Shown: in pieces, positions 1 through 6,254 of the stretch
How positions within the stretch are numbered: position 1 is the stretch's first letter
Layout of the letters: each line of letters opens with the position of its first letter
Source: a virus
Lineage: Duplodnaviria > Heunggongvirae > Uroviricota > Caudoviricetes
IMG/VR virus record: IMGVR_UViG_2778261543_000006
Location: 1-7,361 of that record
Strand: one strand, 5' to 3'
Length of the DNA stretch: 7,361 nt
Notes under the pieces: generated by a model
Database searches by the model: none
Told to the model about the DNA's origin: nothing
What the model saw: the letters and a program-made list of their open reading frames with translations, nothing else
Made by a program: the position numbers and the translations under genes

Positions 1-53
1 TTTTAATCAGCGAGTCAGCTTGGGAAGAAATGACCTGCTTATTCGCACCTTCC
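1..53. repeat. Left arm of a perfect 53-bp terminal inverted repeat; partner at 7307-7359
   Basis: Bases 1-53 are the exact reverse complement of 7307-7359. Identity drops immediately inward (1 mismatch then 3 matches, then unrelated). This copy lies inside the O-like ORF and reads through in frame, so it appears native here. Confidence 0.95.
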
Positions 54-265
54 CTAACCCAATCCAGTTTTTTATTAAAGCCATATGTTTTGCGCATGAC
101 AGCCAGAAAGACCAGAAGCTGGTGCTGTGTTAATCCGGCCAGCATCACAGCTTCCAGCAACTCATTTGCAATGCGCGTATAACCATCATCGAGATCTGCC
201 ACGCGCGGCTCCTTTTGTGCCACATCCGGCACTGGAAAATTGAATATCTCAGCAGTGTTTGCCAT
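1..265 (-). CDS. Lambdoid replication initiation protein O-like, N-terminal 88 codons; 3' end lies beyond the left window edge
   Basis: Minus-strand ATG at 265..263 preceded by GGGAGG. Translation [88 protein letters not shown], open to position 1. The pattern (..NVADLDDGY.R..N.LLEA...LT..Q..VLLA..RKTYGWNK) resembles the lambda O N-terminal domain as recalled. Absent from the ORF track because it has no in-window stop. Confidence 0.7.
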   Translation of the reverse strand, partial: MANTAEIFNFPVPDVAQKEPRVADLDDGYTRIANELLEAVMLAGLTQHQLLVFLAVMRKTYGFNKKLDWVREGANKQVISSQADSLIK

Positions 266-282
266 AATTCCTCCCGCAATGA

Positions 283-552
283 GTGCGTTACGATTTGCAC
301 CTGAAAGTCGGCTCTGTTCCCGCAGACCGGCTTTCGCCATTTCTGAGCCTGTCATATTGCCCCCAACATGGTGGTAACCATCGCCATCAATGGACCAGCC
401 AGATGCTGGTCAAACGCAAAGATGGTACCTGGACTGCATCAGCTAATTTACGCGGACGACTTTATCTGCATCGCGGCATTGAGCGCACTTATACCCGTGA
501 CTTGCTCGTGGAAGTTTTTCTCGACGGACGCGGCAACGGTCTGAATCACTAA
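283..552 (+). CDS. Hypothetical small ORF occupying the position of lambda kil (GTG start at 283; an internal ATG at 397 would give 51 aa)
   Basis: ORF-track entry of 89 aa ending at TAA 550-552, the position where kil ends in lambda relative to gam. The sequence does not resemble lambda Kil as I recall it, and no convincing RBS was found. Could be non-coding. Confidence 0.2.
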   Translation: MRYDLHLKVGSVPADRLSPFLSLSYCPQHGGNHRHQWTSQMLVKRKDGTWTASANLRGRLYLHRGIERTYTRDLLVEVFLDGRGNGLNH

Positions 553-627
553 TCCCCTTTCCTGTTTTCCGAATCAGCCTGGCATTCCGCGGGCGATTTT
601 TTCACAGCCATTTTCAGGAGTTCAGCC

Positions 628-924
628 ATGAACGCTTATTACATTCAGGATCGTCTTGAGGCTCAGAGCTGGGCGCGTCACTACCAGCAGATCGCCCGTG
701 AAGAGAAAGAGGCAGAACTGGCAGACGACATGGAAAAAGGCCTGCCCCAGCACCTGTTTGAATCGCTATGCATCGATCATTTGCAACGCCACGGGGCCAG
801 CAAAAAAGCCATTACCCGTGCGTTTGATGACGATGTTGAGTTTCAGGAGCGCATGGCAGAACACATCCGGTACATGGTTGAAACCATTGCTCACCACCAG
901 GTTGATATTGATTCAGAGGTATAA
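628..924 (+). CDS. gam: Gam, RecBCD nuclease inhibitor (short GamS form, 98 aa)
   Basis: Translation [98 protein letters not shown] is recognisable as phage lambda Gam with at most a few substitutions. AGGAG RBS 7 nt upstream of the ATG. Followed 5 bp later by bet, as in lambda. Confidence 0.9.
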
Positions 925-929
925 AACGG

Positions 930-1442
930 ATGAGTACAGCACTCGCAACGCTGGCAGGGAAGCTGGCTGAACGTGTCGGCATGGATTCTGTCGACCCACA
1001 GGAACTGATCACCACTCTTCGCCAGACGGCATTTAAAGGTGATGCCAGCGATGCGCAGTTCATCGCATTGTTGATCGTCGCCAACCAGTACGGCCTTAAT
1101 CCGTGGACGAAAGAAATTTACGCCTTCCCTGATAAGCAGAACGGCATCGTTCCGGTGGTGGGCGTTGATGGCTGGTCCCGCATCATCAATGAAAACCAGC
1201 AGTTTGATGGCATGGACTTTGAGCAGGACAATGAATCCTGTACATGCCGGATTTACCGCAAGGACCGTAATCATCCGATCTGCGTTATCGAGATGGCACA
1301 TAGCCTCGCTCAAATTGGAGTCAGGTTTGTGCCAATACCAGTAGAAACAGACGAAGAATTTCATACGTTAGCCGCATCCCTTTCACAAAAGCTGGAAATG
1401 ATGGTGGCGAAAGCAGAAGCAGATGAGAGAGACCAGGTATGA
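930..1442 (+). pseudogene. bet: Truncated bet (Red-beta / RecT-family recombinase): N-terminal 119 codons fused in frame to a 51-codon unrelated tail, probably an exonuclease C-terminal remnant
   Basis: Residues 1-119 (MSTALATLAGKLAERVGMDSVDPQELITTLRQTAFKGDASDAQFIALLIVANQYGLNPWTKEIYAFPDKQNGIVPVVGVDGWSRIINENQQFDGMDFEQDNESCTCRIYRKDRNHPICV) match lambda Bet as recalled. Homology ends at 1286/1287 and the ORF continues IEMAHSLAQIGVRFVP...DERDQV. Lambda Bet is 261 aa, so the recombinase core is incomplete. GAGGT RBS upstream. Confidence 0.8.
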
Positions 1443-1522
1443 CAACCACGGAATGCATTTTTCTGGCAGCGGGCTTCATATTCTGTGTGCTTATGCTTGC
1501 CGACATGGGACTTGTTCAATGA
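1439..1522 (+). CDS. Hypothetical 27-aa hydrophobic peptide (MTTTECIFLAAGFIFCVLMLADMGLVQ), a single predicted transmembrane helix
   Basis: Its ATG overlaps the stop of the upstream ORF (ATGA at 1439-1442) and its stop overlaps the next ATG (ATGA at 1519-1522), the classic phage translational-coupling arrangement. Very short, so coding status is uncertain. Confidence 0.25.
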   Translation: MTTTECIFLAAGFIFCVLMLADMGLVQ

Positions 1523-1734
1523 CACCTCAGCAGGAAAACGCCCTTCGCAGCATTGCCCGTCAGGCTAATTCTGAAATCAAAAAAGCCAGACAGCAGTTTC
1601 CGGATAAAAACGTCGATGACATTTGCCGTAGCGTACTGAAGAAGCACCGCGAAACGGTAACGCTGATGGGATTCACACCGACTCATTTAAGCCTGGCGAT
1701 CGGCATGTTAAACGGCGTCTTTAAGGAACGGTGA
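1519..1734 (+). CDS. Hypothetical phage protein, 71 aa (MTPQQENALRSIARQANSEIKKARQQFPDKNVDDICRSVLKKHRETVTLMGFTPTHLSLAIGMLNGVFKER)
   Basis: Internal ATG of the ORF-track entry 1423..1734, chosen because it is coupled by ATGA overlap to the preceding small ORF. Charged, helical-looking composition. No family recognised. Confidence 0.45.
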   Translation: MTPQQENALRSIARQANSEIKKARQQFPDKNVDDICRSVLKKHRETVTLMGFTPTHLSLAIGMLNGVFKER

Positions 1735-1756
1735 ACATGAAAAGCAAAATCATCAG

Positions 1757-1777
1757 GGAGCTACAGGCTCCTTTTTT
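1757..1777 (+). terminator. Candidate weak intrinsic terminator (GGAGC-tacag-GCTCC followed by TTTTTT)
   Basis: 5-bp stem, 5-nt loop and a T6 run seen directly. The stem is short, and the element lies inside a possible 29-aa ORF (1737..1826, MKSKIIRELQAPFLLFAFILKRINQQFRD). Confidence 0.25.
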
Positions 1778-1832
1778 ATTGTTCGCATTCATCCTCAAGC
1801 GTATTAACCAACAATTCAGGGATTAATGGAAG

Positions 1833-2051
1833 ATGGCAGACATCATTGATTCGGCATCAGAAATCGAAGAATTACAGCGCAATACAGCAATAAAAATGCG
1901 TCGTCTGAACTACCAGACTGTATCCGCAACTCATTGTTGTGAGTGTGGCGATCCGATAGATGAGCGAAGACGCCTGGCTGTTCAGGGTTGTCGGACTTGT
2001 GCAAGTTGCCAGGAGGAGATCGAACTTAAGAACAAACAATGGGGACTGTGA
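1833..2051 (+). CDS. TraR/DksA-family C4 zinc-finger protein, 72 aa
   Basis: Translation contains CxxC-G-x2-I-x3-R ... CxxC (HCCECGDPIDERRRLAVQGCRTCASC), the signature of the TraR/DksA zinc finger. A TraR-like gene is common in the int-proximal accessory region of lambdoid phages. Confidence 0.7.
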   Translation: MADIIDSASEIEELQRNTAIKMRRLNYQTVSATHCCECGDPIDERRRLAVQGCRTCASCQEEIELKNKQWGL

Positions 2052-2098
2052 TGGCCTCAAAGCAGCAAATTTCAACATCGTCCAACTGAGGTGTAAAA

Positions 2099-2377
2099 AT
2101 GTTCAGAATCATTTTTCCTAACACCTGGTACGTCGACCACCACGGCACTCCCTGCAAAATCCTGCGTTCTACCCACAACAAAGTTCACTACATCCGAAAA
2201 GGCAGAACATGTATCGCCAGCATGTTCCGCTTTAATCATGACTTTGAACCTGTGAATAAAGCTGATGCAGATCGGATAGCAGAAGAGATCGAAACGGCAG
2301 AACACATTAAGAAGTTACGTGACATGCGTTCAAAAAGCAGAGGTAACCATGGAATCATACAGCCTCACACTCGATGA
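2099..2377 (+). CDS. Hypothetical phage protein, 92 aa
   Basis: Strong RBS (GAGGTG) 6 nt upstream of the ATG. Same orientation as the int operon. No family recognised. Confidence 0.4.
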   Translation: MFRIIFPNTWYVDHHGTPCKILRSTHNKVHYIRKGRTCIASMFRFNHDFEPVNKADADRIAEEIETAEHIKKLRDMRSKSRGNHGIIQPHTR

Positions 2378-2720
2378 GGCCTGTCAGTTTCTTAAGATAT
2401 CCAGACCAACCGCCACCAACTGGATACGAACAGGCCGCCTACAGGCAACACGTAAAGATCCAACCAAGCCAAAATCTCCTTACCTCACAACACGGCAAGC
2501 CTGCATTGCGGCGCTTCAGTCTCCGCTGCATACTGTCCAGGTGAGCGCGGGTGATGGCATAACAGAGGAAAGAAAATGTCACTCTTCCGCAGAAATGAAA
2601 TATGGTATGCCTCGTATTCGCTCCCGGGCGGGAAACGAATTAAGGAATCTCTTGGCACAAAGGACAAGCGGCAAGCTCAGGAGTTGCACGACAAGCGAAA
2701 AGCAGAACTCTGGCGAGTAG
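2349..2720 (+). CDS. xis: Putative excisionase / AlpA-like helix-turn-helix protein; 3' end runs 145 nt into int and may be frameshift-extended
   Basis: Internal ATG at 2349 with GAGGT RBS. N-terminus [33 protein letters not shown] fits the winged-HTH excisionase pattern. Sits immediately upstream of and overlapping int. Its 123 codons are longer than typical excisionases. Confidence 0.45.
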
Positions 2721-3739
2721 AAAAGCTAGGGGATTTACCTGATGTCACTTTTGAAGAGGCCTGCCTAAGATGGCTTGAGGAAAAAGCTGATAAAAAATCT
2801 CTCGATTCAGATAAAAGCCGGATTGAGTTCTGGCTTGAACATTTTGAGGGTATAAGGCTTAAAGATATCTCGGAGGCAAAGATTTACTCTGCTGTAAGCA
2901 GAATGCATAACAGAAAGACGAAAGAAATATGGAAACAGAAAGTTCAGGCCGCCATCAGGAAAGGTAAAGAACCGCCTGTTTATGAACCAAAGCCAGTATC
3001 AACTCAGACAAAGGCAAAGCATCTTGCCATGATAAAGGCCATTCTCCGTGCTGCAGAACGCGACTGGAAGTGGCTGGAAAAAGCGCCTGTCATCAAGATA
3101 CCAGCGGTCAGAAACAAGCGAGTCAGATGGCTGGAAAAGGAGGAAGCAAAACGCCTTATTGATGAGTGCCCCGAACCACTGAAATCTGTCGTCAAGTTTG
3201 CGCTGGCAACTGGTCTGAGAAAGTCGAACATCATAAATCTGGAATGGCAACAAATCGACATGCAGCGACGAGTTGCCTGGGTGAATCCAGAAGAGAGCAA
3301 ATCAAACCGCGCCATTGGTGTGGCGCTGAACGATACCGCCTGTAAAGTGTTGCGTGATCAAATAGGCAAGCATCACAAATGGGTGTTTGTACATACCAAG
3401 GCGGCTAAGCGAGCAGATGGAACATCAACGCCTGCGGTCAGGAAGATGCGCATCGACAGCAAGACATCATGGCTATCAGCTTGTCGTCGTGCAGGAATTG
3501 AAGATTTCCGTTTCCATGACCTCAGACACACCTGGGCAAGCTGGCTGATTCAGTCAGGCGTCCCATTATCAGTGCTTCAGGAAATGGGCGGATGGGAGTC
3601 CATAGAAATGGTTCGTAGGTATGCTCACCTTGCGCCTAATCATTTGACAGAGCATGCGAGGAAAATAGACGACATTTTTGGTGATAATGTCCCAAATATG
3701 TCCCACTCTGGAATTATGGAGGATATAAAGAAGGCGTAA
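2576..3739 (+). CDS. intD: Phage tyrosine integrase (site-specific recombinase), 387 aa, IntD-like (DLP12 family)
   Basis: GAGGAAAG RBS upstream. C-terminal catalytic motifs visible: Arg in [16 protein letters not shown]-x-x-R in [11 protein letters not shown], and the tyrosine in MVRRYAHL. The N-terminus [28 protein letters not shown] and the position next to argU match the E. coli DLP12 integrase as I recall it. Confidence 0.9.
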
Positions 3740-3754
3740 CTGATTGAATTGTAA

Positions 3755-3831
3755 TGGCGCGCCCTGCAGGATTCGAACCTGCGGCCCACGACTTAGAAGG
3801 TCGTTGCTCTATCCAACTGAGCTAAGGGCGC
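3755..3831 (-). tRNA. argU: tRNA-Arg (anticodon UCU), 77 nt with encoded CCA
   Basis: Minus-strand sequence GCGCCCTTAGCTCAGTTGGATAGAGCAACGACCTTCTAAGTCGTGGGCCGCAGGTTCGAATCCTGCAGGGCGCGCCA folds as a cloverleaf with the anticodon loop cuUCUaa. Matches E. coli argU, a known lambdoid prophage attachment site. Confidence 0.93.
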
Positions 3832-3862
3832 GTTGATACCGCAATGCGGTGTAATCGCGTGA

Positions 3863-3890
3863 ATTATACGGTCAACCCTTGCTGAGTCAA
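3863..3890 (-). promoter_or_regulatory. Candidate sigma-70 promoter for argU (-35 TTGACT, 16-bp spacer, -10 TATAAT)
   Basis: Read on the minus strand: TTGACT at 3890..3885 and TATAAT at 3868..3863. The -10 hexamer ends 31 nt upstream of the mature tRNA 5' end, consistent with a short processed leader. Confidence 0.45.
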
Positions 3891-4073
3891 TGGCTTTTGA
3901 TCTGGTTGCTGAACAAGTGAACGACCGCGTCTGATTTTCTGATTTATTTCGCTATAGCGGCAAACAAACACACACCGCTGCGCGTCTGAATCAAGAAAAC
4001 CCGTATTTTCATGTATCAAAGTACAATTTACCGCCCTAACGGAAAATTGTCCGCTCCTATGAGACTGGTAACT

Positions 4074-4706
4074 ATGAAACCAACGTCGGTGATCATTATG
4101 GATACTCATCCTATCATCAGAATGTCTATTGAAGTTCTGTTGCAAAAAAACAGTGAATTGCAGATTGTCCTGAAAACGGATGATTACCGCATAACCATCG
4201 ATTATCTCCGAACCCGTCCTGTTGATTTAATCATTATGGATATAGACTTGCCCGGAACAGACGGTTTTACCTTCCTGAAAAGGATCAAACAAATCCAGAG
4301 CACAGTGAAAGTGTTATTTTTATCATCGAAATCAGAATGCTTTTATGCTGGCAGAGCGATACAAGCTGGTGCTAACGGTTTTGTCAGTAAATGCAATGAT
4401 CAGAATGATATTTTTCATGCCGTTCAGATGATCCTCTCCGGATACACGTTTTTTCCTAGCGAAACGCTTAACTATATAAAAAGCAATAAATGTAGTACGA
4501 ATAGTTCAACGGTCACTGTGCTATCTAATCGTGAAGTGACCATATTACGTTATCTGGTTAGCGGATTATCTAATAAAGAAATTGCCGATAAGTTATTACT
4601 TAGCAATAAAACAGTTAGTGCGCATAAATCTAATATTTATGGCAAGCTAGGTTTGCATTCAATTGTAGAGCTTATCGACTACGCCAAATTATACGAATTA
4701 ATATAA
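4074..4706 (+). CDS. fimZ: FimZ, LuxR/NarL-family two-component response regulator (210 aa) regulating fimbrial expression
   Basis: Receiver domain (DLIIMDIDLPGTDG) and C-terminal LuxR HTH (LSNREVTILRYLVSGLSNKEIADKLLLSNKTVSAHKSNIYGKLG). Start taken at MKPTSVIIMD, the internal ATG of ORF 4011..4706, giving the known 210-aa length. AT-rich gene, as is typical for fimZ. Confidence 0.9.
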   Translation: MKPTSVIIMDTHPIIRMSIEVLLQKNSELQIVLKTDDYRITIDYLRTRPVDLIIMDIDLPGTDGFTFLKRIKQIQSTVKVLFLSSKSECFYAGRAIQAGANGFVSKCNDQNDIFHAVQMILSGYTFFPSETLNYIKSNKCSTNSSTVTVLSNREVTILRYLVSGLSNKEIADKLLLSNKTVSAHKSNIYGKLGLHSIVELIDYAKLYELI

Positions 4707-4708
4707 TA

Positions 4709-5224
4709 TTAATTATAATTGATCATAAATATCGCATCCGCTTTCGCCACACCTGGCCGAACACCGCTGGCTAACGCTCGATAATTGGCAAAAAAGTTTA
4801 GTGTGACATTGCCATTTGCATCTACTTCCTCAGTCGGGCTCGCCTCCCCCAGTGCGAGCCGGGAGCGATCGCTATTACGTAATTCGATGGCGACGGTTTG
4901 TGCCATTGCGGGATCATCCAGAGCCAGCAGGTTGGTATCGGATGCCGGCGTTCCCGTAAATAAAATCGCAACTGAACCCGGAGGACATCCCTCCAGCCGC
5001 AGGCTAAAAGGGACGAGTGCCGTGGTATCGCCAGCGTTCAGTAATTGTGTCGTAGGCCATCTGCCTAAATCTACCGTCTTATCAATATCCGCAGTGTTTA
5101 CGGTACAGGAGAAATCAACAACGTTACCGTGCAAATTGATATTAATCGTTCCCAAAGGGTCAGCTGCCCATCCACTGGAAATCCACAGTAACCCGCAGAA
5201 ACAGCTAAAGAGTGCTCTTCTCAT
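4709..5224 (-). CDS. sfmF: SfmF, minor fimbrial subunit (171 aa)
   Basis: Start at MRRALFSCFCGLLWISSGWA (signal peptide) with a GGAG RBS, rather than the upstream ATG of ORF-track entry 4709..5419 that would overlap sfmH. Fimbrial-subunit-like composition. Lies between sfmH and fimZ as in the E. coli sfm locus. Confidence 0.85.
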   Translation of the reverse strand: MRRALFSCFCGLLWISSGWAADPLGTININLHGNVVDFSCTVNTADIDKTVDLGRWPTTQLLNAGDTTALVPFSLRLEGCPPGSVAILFTGTPASDTNLLALDDPAMAQTVAIELRNSDRSRLALGEASPTEEVDANGNVTLNFFANYRALASGVRPGVAKADAIFMINYN

Positions 5225-5234
5225 TCTCCGTACC

Positions 5235-6242
5235 TCATTGATAATCGACGCGTAAATACCCCAGCGCGCTAAACGGCCCTTCGGTCGGTTTTTGACCGGT
5301 AATACTGATAGGCCAGGCGCGAAGTGTGACATTGGCTGCCGCAGCTGCATCCAGACGGAAAGGAATAACGCTATTGAGATCGTTAGGCGTGATCGGCGTA
5401 TCGTTCTGATCGGCGACAATAAAACCTAAATCCTGATTGTCCGACACCATCGCCTGACCAGAAACGGCACTGGCTTCCAGACGCATTGTTAAATAAGCCT
5501 GCGCAGCAACATTCGTACATTTGACCGCAATGCTCTTGGTTTGCGGCATGACACCAGCAGGTCGATTACCCGGCCCTGCCGCACTAAATAACGATGCGCC
5601 GATATCACCAAAATCAAATTCAACAATCTGCCCGGCATTTAATTCGCAGTTTTGCGGTACTTCAACCCGGCCACCAAAACTAATGGTATAAACAGGTGTA
5701 ACCAACGGATCGTAAGGCGTTGATGTCACATACACGGTAAACATCACCTGTCTGGGGATCTCCACCATGTTAATAAAGGGACGAATAACCTTTAAACGAA
5801 ATATTAAACGAGAATCCATCACCCCGAATGGAAGGTTTTGCGAAACGTTAGGATCTGTTCCCATCAGAATATAATTTTGCGGGGGGAACTGAATATCCAT
5901 CACACTATCAACCAGACTCATCGCACCTAATAGATAATCATTTAATTGCATATATTTATAATTATCGATAGTTTCCTGAACAATAAAGTTGGTGACATAA
6001 CTACGGTATGTATAATTCACCAGCGTACCGGGTGGACAAATTGCTGAGACACCTACCCAGCCGGATTTTTCCGGTAAAACAACAATCTGCCCTGGCTGGT
6101 TATTGGTGCTATTAAAGATATTTGAGAGATCATAGTGTTCATCTTCTGCTACGCCAGTACTATTTGCACAAACAGTAGCCCAGGATATGTTTGCCAGACA
6201 CAAACATGCCATCGCCAATAATAATCTGCAGATTATCTTCAT
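5235..6242 (-). CDS. sfmH: SfmH, FimH-like fimbrial tip adhesin (335 aa as called)
   Basis: N-terminal signal peptide MKIICRLLLAMACLCLANISWA, with an AGGAAA RBS immediately after the sfmD stop. Size and two-domain adhesin-like composition fit. An alternative internal start is possible. Confidence 0.85.
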   Translation of the reverse strand: MKIICRLLLAMACLCLANISWATVCANSTGVAEDEHYDLSNIFNSTNNQPGQIVVLPEKSGWVGVSAICPPGTLVNYTYRSYVTNFIVQETIDNYKYMQLNDYLLGAMSLVDSVMDIQFPPQNYILMGTDPNVSQNLPFGVMDSRLIFRLKVIRPFINMVEIPRQVMFTVYVTSTPYDPLVTPVYTISFGGRVEVPQNCELNAGQIVEFDFGDIGASLFSAAGPGNRPAGVMPQTKSIAVKCTNVAAQAYLTMRLEASAVSGQAMVSDNQDLGFIVADQNDTPITPNDLNSVIPFRLDAAAAANVTLRAWPISITGQKPTEGPFSALGYLRVDYQ

Positions 6243-6254
6243 TGATAATTTCCT

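Follow-up and report, generated by a model that had tools for sequence, protein, structure and literature searches.

A DLP12-type prophage remnant at argU with an intact gam gene and an in-frame bet–orf63 fusion

The stretch of viral DNA analyzed here (7,361 nucleotides, hereafter the window) is very probably the integrase-proximal arm of a DLP12-type cryptic lambdoid prophage of Escherichia coli, inserted at argU and preserved at an intermediate stage of decay. Its present organization is best explained by ordinary decay of a cryptic prophage, in which gam has been retained because the deletions are recent and not because the gene is under selection; we assign this reading a probability of roughly 0.9. 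At least four lesions have accumulated in this arm: a microhomology-mediated deletion of 1293 bp fused codon 119 of bet, in frame, with codon 13 of orf63; a further deletion of about 3–3.6 kb took away the 5' end of kil together with the immunity and early-left promoter regions; an IS5-like element entered gene O; and a second IS5-like element entered sfmD.

Location and gene order of the prophage remnant

Members of the DLP12 type are recognized by an IntD integrase gene that adjoins the gene for tRNA-Arg(UCU) beside fimZ and sfm, and this arrangement is found in the window. The genes follow in the order integrase, argU, fimZ–sfm, and positions 2481–7306 are 99.4% identical to DLP12 of E. coli K-12. 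The following features define this part of the locus:

2576–3739, plus strand: intD-type integrase gene, which marks the prophage end (Pfam Phage_integrase; annotated as intD in relatives and in K-12)
3755–3831, minus strand: argU, the gene for tRNA-Arg(UCU) and attachment site of DLP12-type prophages (ARAGORN, Rfam tRNA, K-12 annotation)
beyond the argU tRNA: fimZ and sfm fimbrial genes (open reading frame listing, direct reading)

Less-decayed copies of the element are present in the E. coli strains STEC384 (L001) and JB2 (L002). Both possess, in the same orientation as the window, the genes ren, P, O, ydaT, a cro-like gene, the repressor, kil, gam, bet, exo and DUF1317, followed by DUF1382, a hypothetical gene, a TraR/DksA-like gene, DUF4222, a xis remnant, intD and argU. 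A first-pass annotation of this DNA had described it as a prophage remnant, which is borne out by intD, argU, the fimZ–sfm context and the existence of less-decayed relatives with the same order of genes.

The window shares with DLP12 of K-12 (intD-xisD-exoD'-peaD-renD) the argU attachment site, intD and the fimZ–sfm flanks, and the downstream module of DLP12 (ren, emrE, ybcK and further genes) is common to the relatives of the window. In K-12, however, everything from the xis remnant to ren has been lost, neither gam nor bet is present, and an IS3 insertion is found; the window represents a less-decayed state with other deletions and with IS5-like insertions. The second reference is the red/exo–xis region of lambda (gam-bet-exo-orf60a-orf63-orf61), whose gene order is the same as that of the window and whose nucleotide identity amounts to 96.5–97.5% over window positions 546–1296 and 1286–2028. 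In contrast to lambda, the window lacks the 1293 bp that separate codon 119 of bet from codon 13 of orf63, its kil is a different gene of the KilR type that is truncated at the 5' end, and nothing in it corresponds to cIII, ea10, ral or N. Furthermore, the integrase is of the IntD/argU type, whereas lambda has Int.

In a scan of the window with Rfam for structured RNAs, for example an oop-like RNA, only the tRNA and one spurious antisense match were obtained. An open reading frame at 2319–2720 on the plus strand (123–133 aa) overlaps the start of the integrase gene by about 145 nt; its counterpart is marked as Pfam HTH_17 in the relatives L009, L014, L021 and L022, and the PGAP and K-12 annotations treat the region as a xis pseudogene remnant.

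The gam gene

628–924, plus strand: gam, intact gene for a RecBCD inhibitor of 98 aa in the GamS form (Pfam, BLASTP and PDB matches)

The predicted protein spans the entire Gam profile of Pfam (PF06064; positions 1–98 of 98, E = 3.4e-65, 216.8 bits). It agrees with residues 41–138 of lambda Gam, i.e. with the GamS form, at 96 of 98 positions, and the two substitutions relative to reference lambda are L22I and S61A (GamS numbering). An end-to-end match is also obtained to the solved GamS chains of PDB entries 5MBV and 2UUZ (crystallised or cryo-EM; positions 1–98, E = 2.5e-61). A ribosome-binding site, AGGAG, is located at 616–620, that is, 7 nt before the ATG. The initial description of gam as a full-length gene with a good ribosome-binding site is therefore confirmed by the profile match, by the identity with lambda and by the AGGAG motif.

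The possibility that gam carries inactivating substitutions was examined as well. Its protein is 100% identical to Gam in many phage isolates, among them PhiR11_1, phi458 and ev243; these phages are viable, and we regard the gene as intact. On the nucleotide level, all 297 of 297 positions are identical to gam of less-decayed elements (JB2 and L019). Since the gene is untouched and its product is the same as that of viable phages, the Gam of the window should inhibit RecBCD if it is made; this expectation follows from the literature and structures of lambda GamS and from the identity with the phage alleles.

The bet–orf63 fusion

The open reading frame that follows gam (930–1442, plus strand, 170 aa) is a composite of two lambda genes:

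930–1286, plus strand: 5' part of bet, codons 1–119 of Red-beta (Bet) (BLASTP against lambda Bet; PDB 7UJL residues 1–122; Pfam RecT)
1286–1287: deletion junction, with the crossover in a TA inside the imperfect microhomology TTACCGAG (left) / GTATCGAG (right) (three-way nucleotide alignment, blastn coordinates)
1287–1442, plus strand: 3' part of orf63, codons 13–63 and stop codon of DUF1382/lambda Orf63, in frame with bet (BLASTP, Pfam, PDB 8DSB, PGAP)

The first 119 residues are an exact copy of lambda Bet (120 of 121 positions are identical across the whole BLASTP alignment), and the match to Pfam RecT covers only positions 5–85 of 198. The junction was placed by aligning three nucleotide sequences, the window and the two flanks from the undeleted STEC384 copy, which puts the crossover in the TA at 1286–1287; the microhomology can be written as TA / TAYCGAG. 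Both the extent of the Bet match, 119 codons, and the position of the switch at 1286/1287 had been read correctly from the sequence in the first-pass annotation.

The interpretation of the tail, on the other hand, has to be revised. It had been described as foreign and unrelated sequence with a weak resemblance to the C-terminus of an exonuclease. It is in fact the Orf63 of lambda itself: the tail is identical to residues 13–63 of lambda Orf63 at 49 of 51 positions (BLASTP, E = 6e-35), scores 75.1 bits against a cutoff of 27 with Pfam DUF1382 (PF07131, positions 13–60 of 60), and ends at the native orf63 stop codon. The BLASTP comparison of the tail with lambda Exo returned no alignment, even at E<=100, and an exonuclease origin is ruled out on these grounds. 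Neither the tail nor any other open reading frame of the window belongs to the lambda exonuclease (YqaJ) family, and the window contains no exonuclease gene. The idea that the 170-aa frame is a full-length member of a different protein family was likewise rejected, because Pfam resolves it into a partial RecT and a DUF1382 part and its protein cluster consists of 7 near-identical E. coli sequences.

The segment missing from the window corresponds to positions 7226–8518 of the STEC384 locus, i.e. 1293 bp or 431 codons, an in-frame loss. It comprises bet codons 120–261, the whole of exo (STEC384 7650–8330), the whole of orf60a/DUF1317, and orf63 codons 1–12. A single deletion of about 1.1 kb, taking the 3' half of bet and most of exo, had been proposed. 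That it was a single event and that bet was cut is upheld, but orf63 lies downstream of exo, and the deletion is thus larger, with exo and orf60a removed completely.

The predicted product is not an annealase, as deduced from its sequence and from the residue roles reported for Red-beta. [quoted passage not shown] In the fusion, the N-terminal annealing domain is represented only by residues 1–119, all five template-strand contacts lie beyond this point and are absent, and the C-terminal Exo/SSB-binding domain is missing entirely, the frame turning to Orf63 at residue 120. It is this lack of the DNA-binding residues and of the Exo/SSB-binding domain that argues against annealing activity. The earlier conclusion that neither a functional recombinase nor a functional exonuclease is left therefore holds, given a Bet of residues 1–119 and a wholly deleted exo.

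Orf63 itself is a dimer of 63 aa with unstructured ends (11 residues at the N-terminus, 9 at the C-terminus), a folded core at about 12–54 and conserved arginines R3 and R10 (PMC10869804). Its free-standing form no longer exists in the window: the start codon and the first 12 residues, including R3 and R10, are deleted, and the remainder (13–63) is read as the C-terminus of Bet. Nearly the entire folded core is nevertheless kept. As a point against pure decay, the in-frame fusion and the preserved Orf63 fold mean that the product might, with low probability, have some activity, either residual or new. One might imagine a dimerised Bet fragment that poisons the Red-beta filaments of superinfecting lambdoid phages, or a developmental modulator similar to Orf63. 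Consistent with this are the reading frame, the retained bet ribosome-binding site, the dimeric core, and the presence of the Red-beta subunit contacts K36, K61, D68 and D80 (PMC9512822). However, an in-frame outcome is expected by chance in one of three cases, the Bet fragment is cut off within the N-terminal domain and might be unable to fold, and no promoter evidence was found for the fusion. We consider a new function of this kind a very slim prospect, and the distribution of the allele, described below, also bears on it.

The gene that follows the fusion is located outside the deletion:

1423–1734, plus strand: homologue of orf61, the next gene of the exo–xis region (54/56 identical to lambda orf61; annotated as hypothetical protein in relatives)

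The identity of 54/56 refers to the first 56 residues of a frame that is 103 aa long here and 61 aa long in reference lambda; one of the two has a frame difference. PGAP calls only a 71-aa part of this homologue, at 1519–1734.

Upstream deletion and transcription of gam

A second deletion, which the first-pass annotation does not contain, is located upstream of gam. Five features describe this region:

57–265, minus strand: 5' fragment (about 69 codons) of a lambda-O-type replication initiator gene, cut by an IS (translation MANTAEIFNF...RVADLDDGYTRIANELLEA; aligns to the annotated 'replication protein' of STEC384 and JB2)
240–268, plus strand: promoter-like site, TTGAAT-17-CATAAT with an extended -10 TG (consensus scan)
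398–411: upstream deletion junction (blastn pieces, direct reading)
403–552, plus strand: 3' 49 codons of kil, a KilR-type cell-division inhibitor gene (full gene of 68 aa in STEC384 and JB2)
571–599, plus strand: terminator-like hairpin with a trailing U-run; the gam ribosome-binding site lies about 25 nt further on (scan match 577–594; RNA fold)

In blastn comparisons with STEC384 and JB2 the window matches in three pieces, and the segments 54–409/411 and 398/403–1296 map to separate places. The first of these is minus-strand sequence from gene O (5' end) and from ydaT (3' tip), and from 398/403 the sequence resumes inside kil. Relative to both strains, about 3.0–3.6 kb are missing, which took most of ydaT, the cro-like gene, the repressor, accessory genes and kil codons 1–19, and presumably also the early-left promoter region. 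The junction coincides with a short imperfect microhomology, ATsCkGGTC, that can be read directly on both sides.

Since the early-left promoter region was taken by this deletion, gam would be left without its native promoter. Expression of gam is probably very low, and N-type antitermination should likewise have been lost. That Gam would inhibit host RecBCD if expressed had been stated already; the upstream deletion makes the proviso, expression, the weak point of that statement.

Upstream of gam, the plus strand has no promoter-like site other than the candidate at 240–268. This site matches the consensus at 9 of 12 positions, in a scan that gave fewer sites than were found in shuffled sequences. 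It is the positional homologue of pO, the oop promoter of lambda, where TTGAGT-17-CATAAT occupies the same place; in both, the -10 element overlaps the start codon of O. Transcription from lambda pO runs leftward and ends at tO (PMC5869508). In the ancestor-type locus, with its ydaS/ydaT-type immunity region, a search beyond the pO-like site gave no tO-like terminator, and no oop-like RNA follows the site there. The upstream deletion has brought truncated kil and gam to within about 130–350 nt of the site, which now faces kil, gam and the bet fragment. The hairpin at 571–599 lies in between (-11.3 kcal/mol, z -2.0 by RNA fold) and may act as a terminator. At most, gam expression would depend on read-through from the pO-homologous site past this hairpin.

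A pO-type candidate promoter that possibly feeds gam is the sole mildly interesting residue of the locus. On such a reading, constitutive low-level transcription from 240–268, set up by the immunity-region deletion, would yield truncated kil, gam and Bet–Orf63; carriers would then be partly RecBCD-inhibited, and their recombination of linear DNA, their CRISPR adaptation or their sensitivity to phages would be changed, or they would produce a dominant-negative Bet fragment against superinfecting lambdoid phages. We hold this to be highly improbable.

Equivalents of the kil frame in the relatives L007 and L009 are marked as Pfam KilR in precomputed annotations, though a local Pfam scan of the frame in the window gave no match. 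The ATG at 403 sits on the deletion junction itself and opens a 49-aa frame that gene callers still mark as KilR. A longer frame on the plus strand at 283–552 (89 aa) is an artefact in which kil is fused to antisense O/ydaT sequence.

Occurrence and variants of the allele

The exact bet/orf63 junction is present in one of 5426 complete E. coli genomes, the closed genome of PSS-07 (NZ_AP027673.1). The exact 170-aa protein is encoded on 79 contigs and found in 122 index blocks, where it is named 'phage recombination protein Bet', for example in GenBank BEB68420.1. The neighboring orf61-like gene, by comparison, occurs in 48,213 index blocks, and full gam-bet-exo adjoins it in almost all of the ten contexts listed. 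The allele is already contained in public data, with annotation in deposited genomes; in PSS-07, PGAP divides the frame between a pseudogene for bet and a DUF1382 coding sequence of 49 aa. As regards published work on DLP12 variants with gam, bet and exo, no such allele is described among the titles and abstracts listed.

These data also decide whether the junction could be a mis-join in the assembly or a chimeric contig. The window is bounded by IS repeats, as is typical of short-read contigs. However, the junction is far from the IS ends, and it recurs identically in one complete, closed genome as well as in dozens of NCBI, ENA and Logan assemblies of independent origin; an artefact is thereby ruled out for practical purposes.

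The carriers of the bet–orf63 allele are about 99.9–100% identical to each other. Window positions 54–7306 are identical to L007 and L009 at 7253 of 7253 positions, and the comparison of 423–7306 with PSS-07 gives 1 mismatch in 6884 nt. PSS-07 has the same bet/orf63 junction as the window but a larger left-hand deletion, by which a remnant of P abuts gam, and it is without the IS5 insertions. Erosion from the left is a feature of this near-clonal set: the deletion extends to position 423 in PSS-07 and L010 and to 167 in L014. In the sister variant L011 (7861–7995), which has the same fusion, a further deletion of 384 bp (window 430–813) took place at a TACC microhomology, removing the ribosome-binding site and the 5' half of gam and leaving a frame of 44 aa. 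Hence, gam is dispensable within the carrier lineage.

What has to be weighed against decay is the idea that gam has been domesticated as an anti-RecBCD gene, i.e. that it is selected and expressed, for instance from the pO-like promoter, and partly inhibits RecBCD, with consequences for recombination, linear-DNA uptake or phage susceptibility. The gene is intact, its ribosome-binding site is good, it does not differ from functional phage alleles, and the pO-homologous candidate promoter now faces it. Strain HCM-25C-3 (L005) moreover contains a different, independent deletion between bet and DUF1317 that eliminated exo and part of bet but kept gam, so that two independent deletions have spared the gene. 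Among the eight contexts listed with the bet–orf63 junction, seven keep the full gam, which is also what weak selection for gam would predict. However, with carriers as near-clonal as these and with gam the same as in less-decayed elements at all 297 positions, there has been no time for decay; gam was halved in L011 within the same lineage; and K-12 DLP12 has lost the entire region. The native promoter is deleted, and a hairpin with a U-run precedes the gene. Constitutive Gam, furthermore, leads to a loss of viability similar to that of recBC mutants. The identity of gam with the less-decayed copies, together with its truncation in L011, means that an intact gam is no evidence of selection. 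We therefore regard domestication as very improbable and favor decay with recent deletions.

The same distribution bears on the fusion as a functional protein. Its persistence on 79 contigs could be taken in favor of a function; the small cluster of near-identical sequences, set against the abundance of the orf61-like neighbor, and the treatment as a pseudogene by PGAP argue against it, as does the bet deletion of HCM-25C-3, which appears to be out of frame according to the PGAP coordinates.

The importance of the locus is slight and lies mainly in annotation hygiene, because the 170-aa 'Bet' of the databases is a Bet–Orf63 chimera. It also illustrates the stepwise, microhomology-driven decay of a DLP12-type prophage in a region of fully characterised lambda genes. 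If gam were expressed, carriers would be partly RecBCD-deficient, which would bear on recombineering, phage susceptibility and genome stability.

One assembly among the relatives (L008, 7628–9570) carries the segment corresponding to about window 557–2499, which starts a little before gam and stops a little short of int, inverted with respect to its flanks. The overlaps at its breakpoints comprise about 10 nt, CTTTCCTGTT and the reverse complement CTTGCCGTGTT, which are only loosely similar.

Insertion sequences

Both ends of the window consist of IS sequence:

1–56, plus strand: end of an IS5-like element (ISKpn26 family) in replication gene O (98% match to ISKpn26 ends in JB2)

The other end, 7307–7361, has the same ISKpn26 terminus, CTTATTCGCACCTTCC, in inverted orientation, as read directly from the sequence. 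The tetranucleotides at the insertions are CTAA (57–60) in gene O and TTAA (7303–7306) in the usher gene sfmD. The relatives L007 and L009, which are 100% identical over 54–7306, are without the IS. The window resembles a short-read contig bounded by IS repeats, and its arrangement is structurally similar to a composite transposon. In JB2, two copies of ISKpn26 are located in fimZ (10942–13974 of the JB2 locus; about window 4467–4633), and one lies in sfmD at a place other than that of the window, which suggests that the argU–fimZ–sfm neighborhood is a recurrent target of the IS5 family.
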